DNA of 64,000 nt from a virus: the IMG/VR virus record IMGVR_UViG_3300029989_000005. One strand, given 5' to 3'. This document shows, piece by piece, positions 23,930 to 57,580 of this stretch. Position 1 is the stretch's first letter. Every line of letters starts with the position of its first letter. The notes beneath the pieces were generated by a model. It made no database searches, was not told where the DNA came from, and saw nothing but the letters and a program-made list of their open reading frames with translations. Both the position numbers and the translations under genes were made by a program.

Positions 23930-24423
23930 TTTAAATGTGATAATTGTAGGACTTGAGCCTACAAGGGGCTTTTGCCTCCACAGTAACCATATCCTCCGAC
24001 TTATTAGGTACATCCTGCAGCCTATGTCAATTCATTAAGACCATTCCATTCACTTTCGTTACTAGGTTAGTGTTTACCATTTCTCGGCAAATTATCAGTT
24101 TATCATTTATATTTGAAAACCACCAAAGGTATCCAAGAGATATTCAGAAATATTCCAAATTTGCCGAGAAATATCAGACATATCTCAGAGGCTTTCCCTT
24201 GAATTCAAAGTTTTAAAGTTATGTCAGTAAGTGAGATAGGAAATGAGTTCAAGGAATATGGCAAAAAGTTTCAAAGAGATAGTAAGAGAGGTCAAATATA
24301 TGGACAATATGGGGGATATATATTATATACTATTATGTCAGTTGAAAATTATTAATACAGAGATAACAATACCAAGTCTGAATATCTTTAACATCTTTTA
24401 ACTTAATTATGATATATGTCAGT
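23930..24423. promoter_or_regulatory. ~490-bp non-coding locus with inverted repeats and TATGTCA(G/A)T boxes
   Basis: 15-bp inverted repeat 24079-24093/24158-24172; boxes near 24023, 24220, 24334 and 24415. Confidence 0.45.
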
Positions 24424-24657
24424 TCAAATAGTATATAAAAGTATTGTCCTGTCAAAATCATCTGCCATAATTATTGATGAACCTTTAGCCGATAGATTCC
24501 ACATAGTTATTCTTTCTATCATTTTTACTTGTGAGTTTATTTTATATGCCATTATCCCTACTCTGATGCATAATTCCTTAGTGGTAAAAGGTACTTCTAC
24601 CCCACTTATAATCAATATAAATTTAGTTATTGTCTTTGTTTTAGATTCAAGCATAAC

Positions 24658-34270: not shown

Positions 34271-34525
34271 TTATCTTTTATTCCAACTCATTGGTATTAT
34301 ATTTTGATTTTCTGATCTTTTTAAACACACAATAAGTTCAGACTTAAAAACCTTAACTGTAAATCTAAATTTGCTTCTTACAAATCTTTTATTTGATTCA
34401 ATTACATGATAAACTGAATTACTTTGCTTCTGACCTATACATATGATAAAATCGTCAGACTTTATATTTATATCTGATGGACAATCAACAAAGAATTTTC
34501 TAATTTTATCGGTATGTTCATTCAT
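34271..34525 (-). CDS. Hypothetical protein
   Basis: ORF coupled to the gp2-like gene. Confidence 0.5.
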   Translation of the reverse strand: MNEHTDKIRKFFVDCPSDINIKSDDFIICIGQKQSNSVYHVIESNKRFVRSKFRFTVKVFKSELIVCLKRSENQNIIPMSWNKR

Positions 34526-35247
34526 TAGAACAGGTGTTTATAAGATTTAATATCTTTTATAGTGCGTTCAGCTATTTTTAAATCTTTTGGTGCTTTTTTT
34601 ACACCCGTAAGATTATCGTAATATGACATATATACACTCCTTATACCGAGAAGGTTGGCTGTCTTTATAAAAGGAATTGTAAAAGTACATAATCTATGCC
34701 AATCTTCATAGCTAATAATTTGAGGTGGTGATGTAAATGCCGAATATTTATATGAACGTATACAATATTCAAATCCACTATTTTCAAGCATTTTTTGCAT
34801 CATTTCCCAATTAACGGGTAAAGTTCTAGTTGGTTGATTCCCAGCTTTCATTTGATTAATTGATGGATTTATTATCTCTGAGCCAAACACACGTATGATT
34901 TGGTCTAGTATTTGTATCCTTATCCTTGGTGGTACGAATGTAAGATTAATTCCGTAAGGGTTGAAATCACCTGATTTTGTAAATTTTTGACCTATTATGA
35001 AATTTATGGGTCTGAATGAAAAAGCGGGGCATTGAGCAAGTAATTTTTCCTCAGGGGTTATTGGATTATATCCGAATGTATAAATTTTACCAGGAATTAA
35101 AAATATTTTATCTTTCTTTTCGGGTAAATTTTTACTAGACTGATCAGTCAAGTAATTATCGTAAAACCATTTTTGATTTCTAGATACCATAGTTGAATAT
35201 GGTGTTATCATCATTTCATCGGTCAACGTTTCGGCTATTAATTTCAT
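34525..35247 (-). CDS. DNA end-protector protein (T4 gp2-like)
   Basis: PGKIYTFGYNP..P..GINLTFVPPRIR..CIRSY pattern of the gp2 family. Confidence 0.7.
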   Translation of the reverse strand: MKLIAETLTDEMMITPYSTMVSRNQKWFYDNYLTDQSSKNLPEKKDKIFLIPGKIYTFGYNPITPEEKLLAQCPAFSFRPINFIIGQKFTKSGDFNPYGINLTFVPPRIRIQILDQIIRVFGSEIINPSINQMKAGNQPTRTLPVNWEMMQKMLENSGFEYCIRSYKYSAFTSPPQIISYEDWHRLCTFTIPFIKTANLLGIRSVYMSYYDNLTGVKKAPKDLKIAERTIKDIKSYKHLF

Positions 35248-44901: not shown

Positions 44902-46195
44902 TTAGTATTTTTTATATGGAATTGATTTCAACACATCTGATGAAAATTTTTTAAGTTTTGTTTTCCTTGGATTTTCCTTGGAAAATTTCTCTATGGCATC
45001 AATCATCATTGCTGCCTCTATAGCCTCAAGCATGATAAACACTTTATCTGTCTTGTTATTTGTTTCTTCAAAAACTTGCATATAATTTTACATTTTAAGT
45101 TATGGCATTAATCTGCTTAATAATGTTAACGCATGATTTATAAATTGCCTCCATTTTAGAATTTTCTTTGTATTCACAGCATATGTAACCACAAGTAGTT
45201 ATTTTACAATAGCATCCAATTATGTGAAACACATATCCCATTGATTCAATTTTTTCTACAACAGGCATTAACCAACTAAAATCATAATTCCATCTACCAA
45301 AATTAGCATAAGAATACTCATGATCAAACGGATATATAGTATTTATCGGACATCTAAACATATTAAAATGCATAGTTCCAATAGGATATCCACCTACAGT
45401 ATTGCTATCAATAGAGCCATCAGGGTTCTTATTACATGCAAATACGCATATCAATTTATTACCTTCTAAAATTTCTTCATTATTATCCATACAATATTAG
45501 TTTAATTCAATTGTTCCTCTTGGAAAGAAATGCATTAATGGTAATATCTGCTCCTTTGTGTATGTTGTAGCAAATTCACCGTTGAATAATTCAAAAGCTA
45601 TTTCTCTCATTCTCTCATAGGATTCTGCTTTTATTACACCAACACAATCCTTATCCAATATTATTGAGCCATGAGTATGGCTATGATGTTGACCGAAAGT
45701 TATATAAAATGGTTCTATTTTTGGGACACCATGTATTATTCCATCAATTATATCGTATTGCCTTACATCTTTCATCATTTCCTCGAAATTTTTATATTTT
45801 TTGCTCCATTTAACAGAGCCAAAAATAAGTTTTTCCAATTCACAACTTTCATCATCTATATTAAACCAAAAAGCAAATTCTCTGCTATCGTTATTATCTA
45901 AACATATATTAACAAGTGCTAAATCATACCCGTACATTTGTTTTATTATACCTATATTTTCAACAGGAATATCCTTATCAAGAGTACAGCCATTAACTTT
46001 AATGTTGGTATGATTTTTGTATGAATCACAAATTGTTGTACCACCACGAAAATAGATACCATACATTGCCAAATAGTCTGCTAGCAGTGTATATAAAGAA
46101 TAGTTTTTACCATCAGACTTATTAAGATTTGTAAGATGAAAATCTCTATTACTTAATAAAGATTCATCGAATACTTTAAATTCCCTTTTTGCCAT
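44902..46195 (-). other. Three hypothetical CDS
   Basis: Untracked 59-aa ORF at 44902-45081, plus 45095-45490 and 45497-46195. Confidence 0.55.
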
Positions 46196-49942: not shown

Positions 49943-52900
49943 TTACATGTTTTCTCTTAATGCCTGTAATTTGGAAAGATTGCTTTCATCAAGACCGAAA
50001 ATTGTTCTATCGGGTGATGTAAGCTTGTTTTTCCTTTGTCTTTCATTATATTCGCTTGGGGTTTCCTTATCAATGCCAAGTATTTCTTCAACAGATGGTG
50101 GTTTTACCTCAAATTTTAATAGTCTTGTGGTATCTTCCAACAAATAATATTTTAATGCTATAAATCCTGCGGTTGAAATCTTTTTATCGGATTTGAGTGA
50201 GAAATAGCCTATTCTTTGAGCTTTATATTCCTCAGGCATTTCCTCAAAATTTTTATTTCTTTTATCAATTTCCTTTTGTGAAAGTTTACCAAGTGCTTTT
50301 TTAGCCACAAACACAACACTTGTAGCCTCAACCAATTTTTGTGATAGTGGTATTAAACCTACGATTTTTTTGTTAGTAATACAACAAACAGAGCCATCAT
50401 CAACAACTTTACACATATGGTTGAAGCTATAAGGATTGAATACCCTTGCTAAATGGTTAAGGAAATTAAGACCTTTTTCAGTCTTTTCAATTTCCTTAAT
50501 AAGATTAAAAGCCCTGTTGACATCATCTGGTTCAGGGTCACCAAATTCAGTTTTAAGTTTTGAGTAAATAACAGCCAATTTGGGTAAGTCCAAGTTTTTC
50601 TTCTTAATTTCAAGTTTTGGTCTTGATAACATTAATGCTGAACGCCTTGGTCTATATAGTTCTAATTTCATGGCATTATCCAAAGTTTTTATTGCTTCCT
50701 CTTTTTGTTCTTTGGAAAGTCCTGTTAAATTCAAAACCCTAACTGATTTTGAGGGTTTTTCAAACTTGGAAAGATCAATTGAACCTACAACCTTAATCTG
50801 TTTGTTGTTTGGATGTGATTCAATTTCTTCCTGTGTCATAGGAACAATTTTATACATGAAATTGTTAGGTTGTAATACAACAAAATCATTACATTCCTGA
50901 TTTGTACCATCGAAACAGTCTTGACCTTCTTCAACTGTATAAACTAAATCTAATACTTTATGAGTTTTCATTTTTATATATTTTTAAAAGCTAAAACAAA
51001 CATTTCTAATTTCTTCGATTCTTTCATCAACCCACTCTTGAAGCTTTTCTTGCTTTTTATCATTTACATTTTCTTCGGGTAGTTCTTTTTCCCAACCATC
51101 TACACCTGTATTGATATCCAAATCATTAGCAACATCTGTATTAATATCATCAATGTCTTCATCATATTCTACATCAATATCGTCAAATTGTGATATTATT
51201 TCATCCATTTCATCAATACGTTCTTGCATAAGTTCACCTGTTGGTGAGGACTGTAAAGAATCAGGTATACCATCCAATTTGTCTTGGGTTTCATCACGGA
51301 GAGTTTCGGCATTGGATTTGATATTTTCAATAAATTCAGATAATTCCTCAGCATTAGTTATAGTTATAACCGAAATGTCCTCAATTTGCTCTTGCATGGA
51401 ATAATAACATGACATGAATTCACTTTGTGTAAGTTGTGATTGTCTTGGTTGTGTTTTACTTATATTTTTACCACCATGTAAAAACTGCCACCAATAATAA
51501 GATTCACCCTTTTTGATTAAAACTGTGTCAGTTTCGTCATATGGTTGTGTGCGGTCAATTTTAGAAAGTATTTGCCCCTCTCTTTTACCTTTTAATGATG
51601 TATATTCAACCCTTTTTCCCCTTGAGTAAATATTACTCTGTGCTGTTTTTACTAAATTTGCTTTTGCCATGATTATAATTGTTAAATTAAATTTTTGATA
51701 TTAAGTAATCAATTTGTGTTTCAGATAATTTTAGTTCCAATATGCGTTTACGTTTTAAAACCATATCCAACCCTATTTCCTCTATTACCATGATTTCAAG
51801 ACCATCATCCTTTAATTCTTCCGCTTTAACTAGCAGAAAATCCATCCAACCCATTTTTTCTGCCAATATTTGCTTTTCTTTTTCTGCAATTTCATCTTTA
51901 TGGATTAATTCCAATGATAAAATTGAAGATTCCAAGGTTTTTATTTCGTGTTTCAAAAATGTTTCCTTAGCTTCAAACGGAAGCCCATTTTCTATAGCCA
52001 CATCGTTATTGATATTGTTAATCATCAAATCAAGACTTTTACCGAAATACTGTGAAAAATAACTATCAGAGTTGCATAGTTTGGTTAGTAATTTTATTTC
52101 TTCGTCTTTTGTCATAATAATGAATTGTTATTGTTAAATTAGTTTGTATTTTATAATTGGATATTTTATAATTAATCTATGTGGCTGATTTTAACGTCGA
52201 ATTTTTTCTTTCCAAAAACGTTAAACCAAAAATTAAGTAAGTTTAATCCATTTGAACCACCACCAAAAGATTCATAAGATAAATTAGTAGTGACCCATAC
52301 CATAACATAATCCTTGTCAAGCAGGTTTGGAGTTGCATTTGTGGCTAGATCACTTAATTTACCAATACTTACAGAGGTATTAAAATTTGTGATACGTAGT
52401 TTTTTGAATATTACGGGTGTGGTTTGGAAATAAGCTGTGGAAAGCTCAATGTGATGAGAACCCATTATGTCAACAGTTTCTTCAATTTTTAGTATAGGTG
52501 CTGTAAAACCCCTTTTTAATAATTCTTCTTGAATGATTTCCCTAATTTCAAGCAAATTTGATAACGATAAGTAATTTTCTGCTGAGTTCATAATTTGTAT
52601 TTTTTAAATTATTTTTATATTTAACGATTTTTCTATCAATTTTACTATTTCATGCTTCTGTGCTGCTTTACATTTAGAATACCAACAAACACAATAGAGG
52701 TTTCCACAGTCTGTATAACCTTTCATAGGCTTGAAAATGTAAAGACCCAAGCTACTATCACCATTTTTAGTATTTTCACCAAAAATGATTCTGTCTGCGT
52801 TGTAATTATTATCATTTTCAATTTTAATTCCTTGATTGGGTTTGAATCCAAAGCTAATTAGTTTAGCATTCAATTCAGAGGCTGTTAATGCTCTAGCTGT

Positions 52901-53029
52901 TGCCATAATTTCTATTTATTAAATTATTTCCTGAATTACACGCAACCAATAAAACGATAAGCATCCAATTACAAATAAAACGCCAATAATTTTATAAAGA
53001 TTTTCTGCTGAGAGGATTTCTGTTTTCAT
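49943..53029 (-). other. Putative early gene cluster (six hypothetical CDS)
   Basis: ORFs 49943, 50984, 51687, 52172, 52604 and a small TM ORF starting at about 53029, downstream of the -24/-12 promoter. Confidence 0.55.
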
Positions 53030-53062
53030 AATTTCTATTTTTTAAATTATTTCCAAAATTAT

Positions 53063-53224
53063 TACAAAAATCATGCCAAATTTGTTATTATATATGTCAA
53101 TTCATAAAACCTTAACAAACCTTAACACAAAAAGCATAATTTTAACATTTTTTAACTGACAGGTGACATGTTTGTCATGTCACCTGTCAGTTAATATGTA
53201 TGTCAGTTCGCCATGTATGTCAGT
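53063..53224 (-). promoter_or_regulatory. Sigma54-type promoter with upstream TGACA boxes, copy 1
   Basis: TTGGCATGATTTTTGTA at 53079-53063; TTAACA repeats; 19-bp palindrome 53152-53194; TATGTCAGT boxes. Confidence 0.65.
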
Positions 53225-53520
53225 CAAATTTTTAACTTTTCCATTATTACTGAAATCGATTTTCCATTATAAAGTTCCAATACATTATTTTCAATTGCAT
53301 AGTACATTGGTGATTTATTAGTAAACCAAAATTGCCCGTATTTTTCCTTTAATTGTTTCTTTAAATAATTTGTTTCTTTAAATTTTTTCTTTGATTCCAA
53401 AGCATCTATCTGTACATCAGTAGGTTTTATATCATTTAAAAAATCTTCATGCTCTATGAGATTTTTTATTTGTGACATACCGTTTTGGTATGTCACTTTA
53501 TATGTCGATATTATTTTCAT
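53224..53520 (-). CDS. Hypothetical protein
   Basis: Coupled to the sigma gene. Confidence 0.55.
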   Translation of the reverse strand: MKIISTYKVTYQNGMSQIKNLIEHEDFLNDIKPTDVQIDALESKKKFKETNYLKKQLKEKYGQFWFTNKSPMYYAIENNVLELYNGKSISVIMEKLKI

Positions 53521-55013
53521 TAATAAATTGATTTTGAGAAATCTATTATTTGATTACCAAATCCGTTGATATGTCCTTTTTCCTCTACTTGCCCGAATTC
53601 ATCATAAATGATATATGAGTAACAGTTATCATCGCCATAAATTTTGATTTCCTCGATTTTACCCGATTCATCATAATTAAACCATTTGCCTATTTTCTCA
53701 CCATTATCAAATTGTCCTTTTTGCTTTACTTTTTTGTTTTCGTAATATGTAATAAAATCACCTACCAATTTCCCGTTTTCCCAATGTTTTTTCTTTTTGA
53801 TATTGCCATTTTCAAAGTATAGAATATTTTCACCATGTCTTTGCTTGTTATTAATTTCACAGCTTTCTTTAAGACATCCGTATGTATTTGGATAATAAAA
53901 TCTGACAGTACCATTATCTGCTTCCCTGTTGGTTATCTTTTCTGTTTCTATCTCGTTGGCTATTACGGAAACGACAAACCTATTAGCCCTTGACACTATT
54001 GACTTAACAGCACCCGATGTATTAAAACCATATTTCTTGAATAATTGGTTGTGTGTTAGATCATTGAAAAAGAAGTCAATCAATATATCAGGGTTTTTGG
54101 ATAACTCGTATAATTCCTTTGCCCTTTTGAGTTTCTTTTTTGGTATTAGGTCTATTTCTTCATGTTTGAAATCTTCCTCTGATTTCATACTGAATTCAGT
54201 TAAATTGGTATTATAGATTTCATAGATTTCATCAACCTCGCTTTTAACCTCAGCTATTATGTCTGTAAAATCACCTTCAGATATTGTCTTGTTTGACGAA
54301 TTGGAAATGATTTTAGAAATATTGATAACTTTACCACAATTAACTTTGTTATATTCCATCATTGCTGTATGTCTTATAGCCATAAGAACATAACCCGCTA
54401 TTGGCTCTTTAGGTTTAAACCAACCGTTTGGATTTATTTCATTATTTTGGAGGGTTGTATCACAAGATGTTAATTTTTGGAGTTCTAATGCGTAAATTTC
54501 ATCTTGTGATTTATTGGCGTATTCTAATTCTTCAAAATGAAAATTAATTAATTTATCCTCTAAAATTGATATTTTGGTTTTCAATAATAATATAGATGAC
54601 TTTAAAATTGCGGCATCAACATCATCATATGTTTTTGATAGTTTTTCTATTTTGGTTTTCAGACTCTTTTTTAAATCATAAAGATCAGCATTGCCGTATT
54701 TTTTCCTATTTCTGAAAGCGTCAAATTGGTTACATACAATTATGTCAGCCATATCTCTGTCTTTGACTACTTGAAAGGCGATGGAATAACACTGCTCATA
54801 AAATTCTTGCCAAAATTTAGACCAAACGAAATTATGTTTAGTTCCTGTTAAAAACAATCTACCAAAAACCTGCGTATCAATCCATTGTTGAAGTGTGAAT
54901 TTCTTTTTGTACGTATCAGACAAGTTATAGTAATTTTTAGTTTCGAAATCAATAGCTACTTTTAATCTAATATCTAAGATTTTATTACCTGTTTTATATT
55001 CCATAATCCCCAT
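53520..55013 (-). CDS. ECF-like sigma factor fused to C-terminal MORN-variant repeats
   Basis: Region 2 (YEQCYSIAFQVVKDRDMADIIV; GYVLMAIRHTAM), region 4 HTH (LTHNQLFKKYGFNTSGAVKSIVSRA), repeats YFENG..G..YYEN..GKWFNYDESG. Confidence 0.65.
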   Translation of the reverse strand: MGIMEYKTGNKILDIRLKVAIDFETKNYYNLSDTYKKKFTLQQWIDTQVFGRLFLTGTKHNFVWSKFWQEFYEQCYSIAFQVVKDRDMADIIVCNQFDAFRNRKKYGNADLYDLKKSLKTKIEKLSKTYDDVDAAILKSSILLLKTKISILEDKLINFHFEELEYANKSQDEIYALELQKLTSCDTTLQNNEINPNGWFKPKEPIAGYVLMAIRHTAMMEYNKVNCGKVINISKIISNSSNKTISEGDFTDIIAEVKSEVDEIYEIYNTNLTEFSMKSEEDFKHEEIDLIPKKKLKRAKELYELSKNPDILIDFFFNDLTHNQLFKKYGFNTSGAVKSIVSRANRFVVSVIANEIETEKITNREADNGTVRFYYPNTYGCLKESCEINNKQRHGENILYFENGNIKKKKHWENGKLVGDFITYYENKKVKQKGQFDNGEKIGKWFNYDESGKIEEIKIYGDDNCYSYIIYDEFGQVEEKGHINGFGNQIIDFSKSIY

Positions 55014-55045
55014 TTTTCAAATTATACTTATGTTAAATTAAATTT

Positions 55046-55833
55046 TTATTTAGAACACCTTGGTAAGAAATTATTTTCTAGCATACCATTTTCTCTGTTA
55101 ATATTGTTTCTAATACCAAAGAAATCATGATAAAAATCAGAATCATTTGATTCCAAAAGTTGTTTGAAATCAATAGGGTTTCCGTGAGTATGACATTTGT
55201 CAAAATCCATTAGTGATGAACCACGGTTTATAGGTTCATTTAAATGTACAAACCTAACAAGTTCTATTGCTCTGCTAATAATTTTAGTTATTAGTTCATA
55301 ATCATTTTTAGTTGTCTTTACGCAATCAGTGATTTCTACCATAGTTCCTATATTTTTAAATTAGTTTATAATTAGTGTTTACTACAATTTTGTATTGCAA
55401 GTTTATAAATTTCTTTTATTGTGAGTATTTTTTGAGCAACAGGAAATTTATCCATTCCTATTCTTCTTATAAGATTCCAATAACCATTTTCTTTGTTAGC
55501 GTTGAATGAGAACCATTCATTATACAATCCCAAAGCTCTGAATTCTATTTTGTTATCGTTTGAAACAGCTTTATTAATTATAATGTTTTTAGCCATAATT
55601 TTATATTATTTTATTGATAAATAATAAAAATTGTTATGATAACGTATTACAATCCCTATTTTTTTAAAGATTGACGTTGATACCCTTAATTCCTGAGGAA
55701 TTGAAATGTATTTGACACCCTTAATAGTTGATGAATCAACCTTTGACACACCAATTTCTTCACTATTTTCGCCTATAAAATTCTTTAAAGATTGAACTTT
55801 TAAAGATTTGGCTTTTGATTCTGCTGCAGTCAT
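55046..55833 (-). other. Three small hypothetical CDS heading the sigma operon
   Basis: ORFs 55046, 55372 and 55606. Confidence 0.55.
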
Positions 55834-55873
55834 AATTTCTATTTTTTAAATTATTGATTATTTCCTCTTTTAC

Positions 55874-56028
55874 TACAAAAGTCGTGCCAAATTTGTTATC
55901 ATATATGTCAATTCATACACCTTTAACAATCTTTAACAAATAAAGCGTTGCTATTAACATCTTTTTACAAACTTATATGACAAAATGTCGTGTAACTTGT
56001 CAGTTACCATATATGTCAGTTTGTCATG
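55874..56028 (-). promoter_or_regulatory. Sigma54-type promoter with upstream TGACA boxes, copy 2
   Basis: TTGGCACGACTTTTGTA at 55890-55874; same element order as copy 1. Confidence 0.7.
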
Positions 56029-56526
56029 TCATTTCTTAATAAAATAGTCTTCCGTAATGTATTCATACCGCATACCTTTATTTTTACAGAATTCAACGGC
56101 TGCTTTTCTCTTTGCCTCAGTTACAGCTGATATAGCCAACTGATATAAATATTTTTCTTTACTTTTATATTTCTCCCTGTCAGGTTTTTCAGTATCTTTA
56201 CGTGATTTTACCTCAATTATGTATTTCGTAAGTTTATTAGAGTTTCCAACCATTTCAACATAAAAATCAGGGTAGTAGCTACATATTTTTTGTTTTACAG
56301 GGTTAAGATAGCTAATAATTAGATCATCACTTTCGTATGACCATCTTTTACATTTTGATGATGAATCTAAAACTTGAATGAATTTTAACTCCAATCCACT
56401 CCTATAAATTATTCCTAATTTCATATTATAATATCCTATTAATTTATCAGGATTTTCCAAGTGATGATATCCTTGATGAAATCTACTATTAGCATGAATA
56501 GGATTTAATATTTCTAATTTCCCCAT
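56029..56526 (-). CDS. Head completion nuclease (T4 gp4 / TnsA-like)
   Basis: NPDK.IG..IYRSGLELKF..WSYE..YYPDFYV..IIEVK..ITE. Confidence 0.85.
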   Translation of the reverse strand: MGKLEILNPIHANSRFHQGYHHLENPDKLIGYYNMKLGIIYRSGLELKFIQVLDSSSKCKRWSYESDDLIISYLNPVKQKICSYYPDFYVEMVGNSNKLTKYIIEVKSRKDTEKPDREKYKSKEKYLYQLAISAVTEAKRKAAVEFCKNKGMRYEYITEDYFIKK

Positions 56527-56590
56527 GTCCTTTTACTTTATTTAGTAAATTGGTATTACGTATAGATTAAAATAAATAAAATTAAAAAAC

Positions 56591-57580
56591 ATGTACAATG
56601 ATTTAATAAATTGGTATAATAACAACACATACAAATCAAGTATTAAAATATGTGAATTTAGGAAAATATGTGAATTAACTTCATTTCTAGATGATAGTTG
56701 CAAACACATAACTCCAAAACAAAGAATGTGGCATATAATTAATAGTAATTTTAATATACAATATTGTGAAATTTGTGGAAAGCAATCGAATTTTGACAGA
56801 CACAAATACTGTTATCAGGTTTGCTGCTCAAAAATATGTGCTAAAAAATTTCAATCATCTGAAAAATGGTCAGACAATTGTAAGAAAAATTATATAAAAG
56901 CAGAATTGACTTGTTTAGAAAAATATGGTGTCGAAAATTATTCCAAAACTGATGAATATAAAGAAAAATATAAAGAAACATGCTTGAAAAAATATGGTGT
57001 CGAAAATCATATGCTTATAGAAGATTTTGTAGAAAAATCAAAGCAAACAAATCTTAAAATTTACGGTGTAGAATGGTATCAACAAACTGACGAATTCAAA
57101 GGAAAATATGAGAAAACATGTTTGGAAAGATATGGTGTAGGAAATATGTCATATCTATCAAGTACTATATCAAAAATACACGAAACCAAAAAGAAAAATG
57201 GTTCTTATGAAAAATCTAAAGAGGAGAATGAAATATATTATAATCTAATAGAATTGTTTGGATATTCAGATATTGTTCGTCAATATAGAGATAAAAGATA
57301 TTATAGTAAAGAAACTAAATATTTATTTGCTTGTGATTTTTATATCAAGTCTTTGGATTTGTTTATAGAATATGATGGAATATGGACACATAAACCACAA
57401 TATTTATCTGAGAAAGAAAGAAATGAAATGATTAAAAAATGGAAAGAAAAATCAGAATTTAGTAATTATTACAAAGGTGCTATTTCTGCATACAATCGTG
57501 ATTGTTTGAAGAGAGAAATATCAAGGGAAATTAATTTAAATATACAATTTATTAGAAAATTTTCTGATTTTTCTATATAG
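56591..57580 (+). mobile_element. Free-standing homing-endonuclease-like gene
   Basis: Zn-finger Cys pairs, four TCLxKYGV-type repeats, C-terminal DFYI..FIEYDG.WTH nuclease motif; opposite strand to neighbours. Confidence 0.7.

Follow-up and report, generated by a model that had tools for sequence, protein, structure and literature searches.

What reads two look-alike intergenic regions on the minus strand of a phage genome, and who supplies the machinery that reads them? Both regions lie in a 64,000-nt stretch of viral DNA (IMG/VR virus record IMGVR_UViG_3300029989_000005; hereafter, the window), at ~53030-53224 (module 1) and ~55834-56031 (module 2), and are ~200 bp long. An original prediction made from the letters of this stretch had taken them for paralogous promoters of the sigma-54 (RpoN) type with a common order of elements. 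We find that order in both modules, with every element that had been described in its place: reading 5' to 3', distal TGACA/TGTCA boxes are followed by GTTAA repeats, a AATTGACATA box, the core TTGGCAYGAYTTTTGTA and a leader. Module 1 aligns with module 2 at 79% identity over 107 nt and, in a second block, at 82% identity over 44 nt. Both modules belong to a phage cassette that occurs repeatedly, and its core is probably a sigma-54 promoter like those of heat-shock genes in the class Bacteroidia.

The two cores, TTGGCATGATTTTTGTA in module 1 (53063-53079, minus strand) and TTGGCACGACTTTTGTA in module 2 (55874-55890, minus strand), are the only zero-mismatch matches to the motif in the window. 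Each combines a -24 TGGCA with a -12 TTG, which places the predicted start of transcription at ~53052 and ~55863, respectively. Both read TGGCAY-N5-TTGT, and hence fit the GG-N10-G geometry of sigma-54 promoters; the distance from the GG to the -12 G is exactly that of TGGCACG-N4-TTGC. A match with one mismatch at 46005 on the plus strand was taken as chance, since it lies antisense within the open reading frame (ORF) 45497-46195. Relaxing the pattern to TGGCAC-N5-TTGC with 2 mismatches gave 29 matches window-wide against 27.5 expected, which is no enrichment. The signal is two specific modules, with no genome-wide excess in the window.

We compared the core with bacterial promoters. In unrelated bacteria, the identical 17-mer is found upstream of recognisable members of the sigma-54 regulon: pspG-like genes in Enterobacteria, flagellar rod genes in alpha- and deltaproteobacteria, and, in Prevotella, htpG, a putative grpE and clpB-like genes. 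In 25 of 30 sampled class-Bacteroidia genomes, TGG[CT]A[CT]-N6-[TC]G is positioned 51-112 nt before groES, and rpoN (Sigma54_DBD) is present in 38 of 41 sampled genomes of this class. Mapping of transcription start sites in Flavobacterium psychrophilum located a -24/-12 motif, SM4, at groESL, dnaK, grpE-dnaJ, htpG, clpB and lon, and reporter mutagenesis was done on one SM4-type promoter of that species (PMC9723704). A comparative study likewise found Bacteroidota chaperone genes to be enriched for sigma-54 promoters (PMC12316311). The exact geometry and the likeness to Bacteroidia groES cores together support the original assignment of the core to the sigma-54 -24/-12 type. When we sampled groES regions across the whole phylum, about half had CIRCE (controlling inverted repeat of chaperone expression) elements and about ten (L203-L212, L217) had a canonical TTGGTAC-N5-TTGC core; judged from these upstream regions, heat-shock control differs within Bacteroidota. 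The host of the phage is itself probably a member of this phylum: a Shine-Dalgarno-like core precedes only 2 of the 86 phage genes, and the best protein matches among cultured phages are to phages of Tenacibaculum and Nonlabens.

The cassette extends well beyond the window. By exact-match scan, we found the 17-mer in 63 IMG/VR loci, several per contig. The closest relative, G001 (167,485 bp, rated 100% complete), has eight intergenic cassettes with the same element order, seven of which have a recognisable gene start in the same orientation just downstream. Across the ten modules of the window and G001, the proximal TGACA lies 20 nt upstream of the core in eight, and phased GTTAA repeats are present in five. 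Four further large phage contigs (G002-G005) contain 8, 13, 26 and 33 cores with <=2 mismatches, and a reversed-pattern control gave 0 in all of them. To describe conservation, we counted 54 sites at most 70 nt from an ORF start in 80 kb of sequence from two of these contigs, which represent other phage lineages. Each of positions 2-6 (TGGCA) and 13-15 (TTG) is the same in at least 96% of the sites, with variation mostly at positions 7-12 and 16-17; sigma-54 promoters show this pattern, in which a spacer free to vary separates the -24 from the -12 block. The distance from core to ATG in these sites is mostly 30-37 nt. One 20-kb block (G004:81001-101000; L278) has 34 cores on one strand, one per small gene, and almost no TGACA boxes. 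Conservation of the motif in related phages, which the original prediction had made a test of its proposal, thus held, and this distribution indicates that the cassette is a family feature rather than a local duplication. No cultured phage matched the region in a blastn search, and an 81-nt cassette query returned only noise. The core motif was not above background in Tenacibaculum phage pT24 (5 matches, 6 in the control) or in Prevotella phage Lak-C1 (1 and 1).

Several of these loci have features of their own. Cores are dense in G005 too (L280/L281), mostly 30-37 nt before an ATG and with almost no TGACA boxes, and in G004 and G005 alike they look like a main promoter class. On the viral contigs L060 and L026, the exact 17-mer is ~30 nt upstream of dnaK-like (MSKTIGIDLGT...) and dnaJ-like (MAEKDYYQILGV...) starts; by their sequences, these are phage-borne chaperone genes behind heat-shock-type cores. 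At L006, L049 and L053 (in G005 and G002), cores adjoin what appear to be tRNA-gene-like and terminator-like sequences, and tRNA clusters in these two contigs may be transcribed from this promoter type. The GC-rich locus L059 (IMGVR_UViG_3300007542_000861) has tandem repeats, each with a canonical TTGGCACGGTTCTTGCT sigma-54 core directly before the 17-mer.

The second question is what the sequences flanking the core might contribute. AAYTGACATA occurs seven times in the window, always on the minus strand, against 1.08 expected, and none of 100 shuffles reached seven; in each module a proximal copy is paired with a distal one, at distances of 106 and 108 bp. The remaining, orphan copies at 24023, 24334 and 24415 (window 24023-24424, minus strand) have no sigma-54-like core after them. 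The proximal block of module 1 (53080-53106, minus strand) contains the AATTGACATA box at 53093-53102, with its TGACA starting exactly 20 nt upstream of the core, and that of module 2 (55891-55917, minus strand) contains the box at 55904-55913. Tandem TGTTAA (TTAACA) motifs are also present in the modules, as is the GAATTGACATA box, which on the plus strand reads TATGTCAATTC. Farther upstream on the minus strand are the GTTAA repeats, which start 37, 47, 67 and 77 nt upstream of the core in module 1 (53112-53156; 10-20 nt spacing) and 37, 47 and 68 nt upstream in module 2 (55923-55958). Their overall spacing of 10-21 nt corresponds to multiples of ~10 bp, i.e. the repeats are helically phased, making them a candidate intrinsic bend or protein-binding array. 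The original prediction had allowed for a bend by integration host factor (IHF) in this interval; we recognised no IHF consensus between boxes and core, where the GTTAA repeats stand instead, and that part of the proposal is not supported.

The distal boxes lie 82-143 nt upstream of the core in the two modules. Those of module 1 (53152-53224, minus strand) comprise three direct CTGACA repeats and the 19-nt perfect palindrome that had been predicted, found as 53152-53170 / 53176-53194; the cluster starts directly after the stop codon of ORF 53224-53520. Those of module 2 (55978-56031, minus strand) include AACTGACATA at 56012-56021 and an imperfect palindrome, TGACAAAATGTCG, at ~55978, and the first of them overlaps the stop codon of ORF 56029-56526. 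Folded as RNA, the module 1 palindrome is predicted to form a hairpin of -34.5 kcal/mol (z -8.3) just past a stop codon, with no U-tract, and module 2 has no comparable RNA hairpin (z -1.8). Downstream of the core, the conserved leaders, GGAAATAAT ... AAAAAATAGAAATT in module 1 (53030-53062, minus strand) and its counterpart in module 2 (55834-55873, minus strand), end at ATG codons at 53029-53027 and 55833-55831, respectively. The leader is A-rich and ends in AAATAGAAATTATG; a AAATAGAAATTATG leader is found four times in the window, each time on the minus strand. The ATG follows the core end after 33 nt in module 1 and after 40 nt in module 2, in agreement with the earlier description of genes closely behind the cores with a common leader.

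Host promoters offer a parallel for the boxes. Over the 200 nt that precede the 25 Bacteroidia groES cores, we counted 60 TGACA/TGTCA boxes, compared with 9.5 +/- 3.1 in shuffled sequences (maximum of 20 in 1000 shuffles). Most frequent 40-100 nt ahead of the core, these boxes form TGTCA...TGACA inverted pairs in 11 of the 25 regions. The comparison with Bacteroidota upstream regions, which had been suggested along with the original prediction, thus reveals a shared element. Since the host groES regions are rich in these boxes, the phage boxes appear to imitate an element that the host sets beside such promoters, in the usual enhancer range. We regard the AAYTGACATA/TGACA boxes as the best candidates for regulator binding sites.

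We next asked where the machinery would come from. No Sigma54_DBD (rpoN) match was found in five related phage contigs, and the complete relative G001 gave no PF00158-type activator; the six frames of the window contained neither GAFTGA nor a matching Walker-A motif. PF00158 did match ORFs of 884-888 aa in G004 and G005; these have two AAA modules and were read as probably ClpB/ClpC-like rather than as enhancer-binding proteins, and the family matches all 14 control genomes as well. Because no phage rpoN or enhancer-binding protein was found, dependence on host RpoN is the simplest reading, and the activator is probably a host protein too, as the original prediction had supposed. A literature search for a Bacteroidota heat-shock activator found nothing.

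A weight matrix built solely from the 25 groES sites allowed us to rank the cores by host likeness. Scanned over 128,000 window positions, it placed the module 2 core second (15.5 bits) and the module 1 core third (14.8 bits), and all eight module cores of G001 were among its top ten there. Several observations weigh against a sigma-54 promoter under host control. The matrix is weak, in that the best scores of shuffled windows (9.7-16.4 bits) overlap those of the modules, and its top match in the window, ATTGGCATAGATTATGTACT (34684-34703, minus strand; 18.2 bits), is intragenic; we treat it as supporting, not decisive, evidence. Both modules have T where the classical consensus has C at -12, which is explained by the host groES cores (n=25), where only the TG is conserved at -12. 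The proximal box is centred ~45 nt upstream of the predicted start, nearer than classical enhancer sites. Lastly, G002, G004 and G005 have the core dozens of times with 0-1 TGACA boxes. This fits poorly with an activator that must always be bound to DNA, and something else might read the motif. As for the ATTGGCATAGATTATGTACT match, it lies in the sense direction inside ORF 34525-35247, and may be due to chance or mark an internal promoter.

One such reader might be encoded by the phage itself. Module 2 heads an operon that includes the gene for P0001 (53520-55013, probably starting at 55004, minus strand), a protein of 497 aa that we accept, at the level of fold and profile, as similar to extracytoplasmic function (ECF) sigma factors, with a helical insert and a MORN tail. 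Like the ECF (group 4) sigmas SigK and sigma-E, it has a sigma-2-like domain (~aa 43-229) and a sigma-4-like helix-turn-helix (~aa 283-358); unlike them, it has an insert of ~100 aa in the sigma-2-like domain (helical, ~aa 105-200) and a fused MORN domain (beta repeats, ~aa 360-490). Only seven full-length relatives were found in two large protein libraries; one relative, P0002, is 78% identical. Pfam detected the C-terminal MORN repeats alone, with no sigma model over threshold; the homolog P0017 scored 20.6 bits against Sigma70_r4, below the cut-off of 24.1, and a shorter relative scored about at the cut-off. We aligned an AlphaFold model made from 7 sequences (mean pLDDT, the predicted local distance difference test, 71.8) to 48,161 PDB representatives; a 3-sequence model (pLDDT 45.7) was left unused. 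The best fold match was to Mycobacterium tuberculosis SigK (4nqw; Z 10.9, root-mean-square deviation (rmsd) 1.8 A over 85 aa) at residues 43-229, and residues 286-353 matched region 4 of E. coli sigma-E on DNA (2h27; Z 9.0, rmsd 2.0 A, 67/69 aa). SigW, SigC region 2 and sigma-H region 4 were matched too, as were, across both domains, over ten additional sigma entries; for the many ECF sigmas matched, Z was 8-10.9 in the two domains. When compared by hhalign with seven Bacteroidota ECF sigmas, region 2 was recovered at 83.9% probability (E 7.8e-6), and a language-model look-up agreed with the assignment. Foldseek results for the better model were filled by the MORN domain, and sequence searches of the PDB gave nothing significant. 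Thus, of the earlier claim that one module drives a phage sigma factor, the position of module 2 at the head of the operon and the ECF-like fold and profile stand, with Pfam sigma models remaining below threshold. In G001, too, a cassette lies directly before the P0001 homolog. We found no homolog in G002-G005, contigs that are only 23-61% complete, yet these have 8-33 cores; as far as can be told, therefore, P0001 is not the reader of the core motif.

This bears on the wider idea that the core is read by some other factor, be it a phage sigma, a sigma-appropriating protein or an alternative sigma of the host, with its likeness to sigma-54 promoters convergent or partial. Phages often bring their own promoter specificity, this phage family encodes an ECF-sigma-like protein, and the G004 block with its 34 sites in 20 kb and few or no TGACA boxes resembles a general phage promoter class. 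Nonetheless, we consider such a reader unlikely. What is conserved and what varies among the sites maps exactly onto the -24 block, the -12 block and the spacer of sigma-54 promoters; known members of bacterial sigma-54 regulons have the same 17-mer in front of them; many cores occur in G002-G005, where, at 23-61% completeness, the ECF-like protein was not found; and ECF promoters have a -35/-10 layout rather than a contiguous 17-nt element. A candidate ECF-type -35/-10 pair in the module, GAAC...CGA, is ruled out by its spacing of 26 nt. Far less plausible is an ordinary Bacteroidota sigma-A promoter (-33 TTTG, -7 TAnnTTTG) in which TGGCA is incidental, although GAYTTTTG agrees with TAnnTTTG at 5 of the 6 specified positions. 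We reject it because the would-be -7 box never begins with T in the 54 sites (G in 42, A in 12); moreover, the near-invariance of TGGCA argues against it, the window modules have no TTTG 19-21 nt upstream, and a scan for E. coli-type sigma-70 promoters gave 29 matches compared with 27.1 in shuffles, i.e. not above expectation.

Other explanations accept the core and differ on what surrounds it. It is possible, though less probable than our main reading, that a repressor or phage regulator uses the boxes as operators, as HrcA does with CIRCE, and that the module 1 palindrome is mainly an RNA 3' hairpin or terminator of the upstream operon. No more than 20 nt separate the proximal box from the core, the position of that box is taken in G003 by a full palindrome, TGACA-N3-TGTCA, and in some Bacteroidota groES regions (L223, L230) the palindrome is on the downstream side of the core; that of module 1 would form a very stable hairpin right past a stop codon; and in other lineages boxless cores seem to work, to judge by their number and placement. 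Against this, the peak of the host boxes falls where enhancers usually lie, the hairpin lacks a U-tract, the terminator scan was empty on that strand, and module 2 forms no comparable hairpin. We give still less credence, and less than to a different reader of the core, to the view that the cassettes are chiefly recombination substrates that shuffle genes, with promoter activity secondary. Repeated cassettes of ~200 bp do flank small genes of unknown function in this T4-like genome, the module 1 stem-loop adjoins the promoter, nuclease genes lie near module 2, and synteny differs between the window and G001, the window having three extra small genes between module and sigma-like gene. However, the strict core, the largely fixed distance from core to ATG and the co-orientation of genes point to selection on expression, and a role in recombination would in any case be compatible with promoter function.

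We therefore return to the sigma-54 promoter with boxes for an activator. Among bacterial sigma factors, sigma-54 alone depends on an ATP-consuming activator to start transcription, and it is normally tied to specific physiological signals. From the arrangement of the modules we infer who might bind, when and to what effect. Host RNA polymerase with sigma-54 would bind TGGCA (-24) and TTG (-12) and initiate at the two predicted starts. Opening of the complex would need an ATP-driven activator, most likely one of the host, since none is visibly encoded by the phage. This regulator would sit at the AAYTGACATA/TGACA boxes, one at a fixed 20 nt and the others 82-143 nt upstream of the core, and the GTTAA repeats may align these sites along the same side of the helix or introduce a bend. 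As module 2 heads the operon with the ECF-sigma-like gene, activity of host sigma-54 would precede that of the phage's own sigma-like factor. Early timing of the modules and a further step from the sigma-like protein to TAAATA late promoters, both part of the original prediction, are hypothetical. More tentatively, and with appreciably less confidence than we have in the core, we suggest that several large Bacteroidota phage lineages run a main transcription class, perhaps the early genes, through the host sigma-54 holoenzyme, and that the lineage of the window has a boxed form of the cassette that also switches on an ECF-like sigma. On this view, given the many cores that have no upstream box, the phages would need a novel way to fire sigma-54 promoters: an activator might act from solution, a phage protein might replace the enhancer-binding ATPase, or weakened -12 elements might allow opening independently of an activator.

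To our knowledge, phage transcription programmes have been described in terms of sigma-70-type promoters, phage sigmas and phage polymerases, not sigma-54. A literature search found no publication on sigma-54 promoters as a phage promoter class or in lytic phages. This large uncultured phage probably borrows an unusual transcription system of its host. If so, part of its programme would be coupled to the heat-shock-type stress regulon of the host, and infection in this abundant phylum of bacteria would be linked to the state of the host in a new way. The motif TTGGCAYGRTWTTTG could also be used to annotate promoters in uncultured Bacteroidota phages.

Closest in function are the SM4 sigma-54 promoters of Bacteroidota chaperone and protease genes (PMC9723704; PMC12316311), which have the same -24 TGGCA and -12 TG with identical spacing; the groES promoters among them, in the 25 regions sampled here, have upstream TGACA/TGTCA boxes as do the phage modules. 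The phage modules have a short A-rich leader that lacks a Shine-Dalgarno sequence. Unlike the SM4 promoters, the phage core has a T-rich spacer, T at -12, a box fixed 20 nt away and phased GTTAA, and the cassette heads small phage genes and a sigma-like gene rather than chaperones, with at least eight copies per phage genome. Closest in genomic behaviour are the PeSL (promoter early stem-loop) cassettes of T4-type phages (PMC2839356; PMC4122927), in which a repeated intergenic promoter and stem-loop lie between small variable genes. PeSL promoters are described there as sigma-70-type early promoters, whereas the cassette studied here is of the sigma-54 type with additional putative protein-binding boxes, and only module 1 has a strong stem-loop. 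Because of the different promoter type, we class these cassettes as PeSL-like in layout and not as members of PeSL. With the classical sigma-54 promoters glnAp2, nifH and pspA, the modules share GG-N10-G(C), clustered repeats ~80-150 bp upstream and a possible bend element between; they differ in having no recognised IHF consensus, an extra proximal site at ~-45 and a location in a lytic-type phage genome.

Lastly, we describe the genes served by the two modules. The first gene behind module 1 (52919-53029, minus strand) is a hydrophobic ORF of 36 aa, too short for ORF lists, and the next ORF, 52604-52906, has the same leader. Behind module 2 is a five-gene unit (53224-55833, minus strand) that encodes proteins of 75 aa, 74 aa, 98 aa (DUF6874), 497 aa (the ECF-sigma-like protein with MORN repeats) and 98 aa, with gaps of <=32 nt; a terminator scan found no terminator-like site on the minus strand of this unit. 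Within it, a further palindrome containing TGACA (10-nt arms GTGACATACC ... GGTATGTCAC; 53472-53496) lies directly past the sigma-like gene and just inside the start of ORF 53224-53520, and was flagged as terminator-like on the plus strand only. Immediately upstream of module 2 is a TnsA-like/endonuclease-I-like nuclease gene (56029-56526, minus strand), with a homing-endonuclease-like gene nearby on the opposite strand (56591-57580, plus strand). This mobile-DNA neighbourhood, at 56029-57580, may relate to the spread of the cassette.

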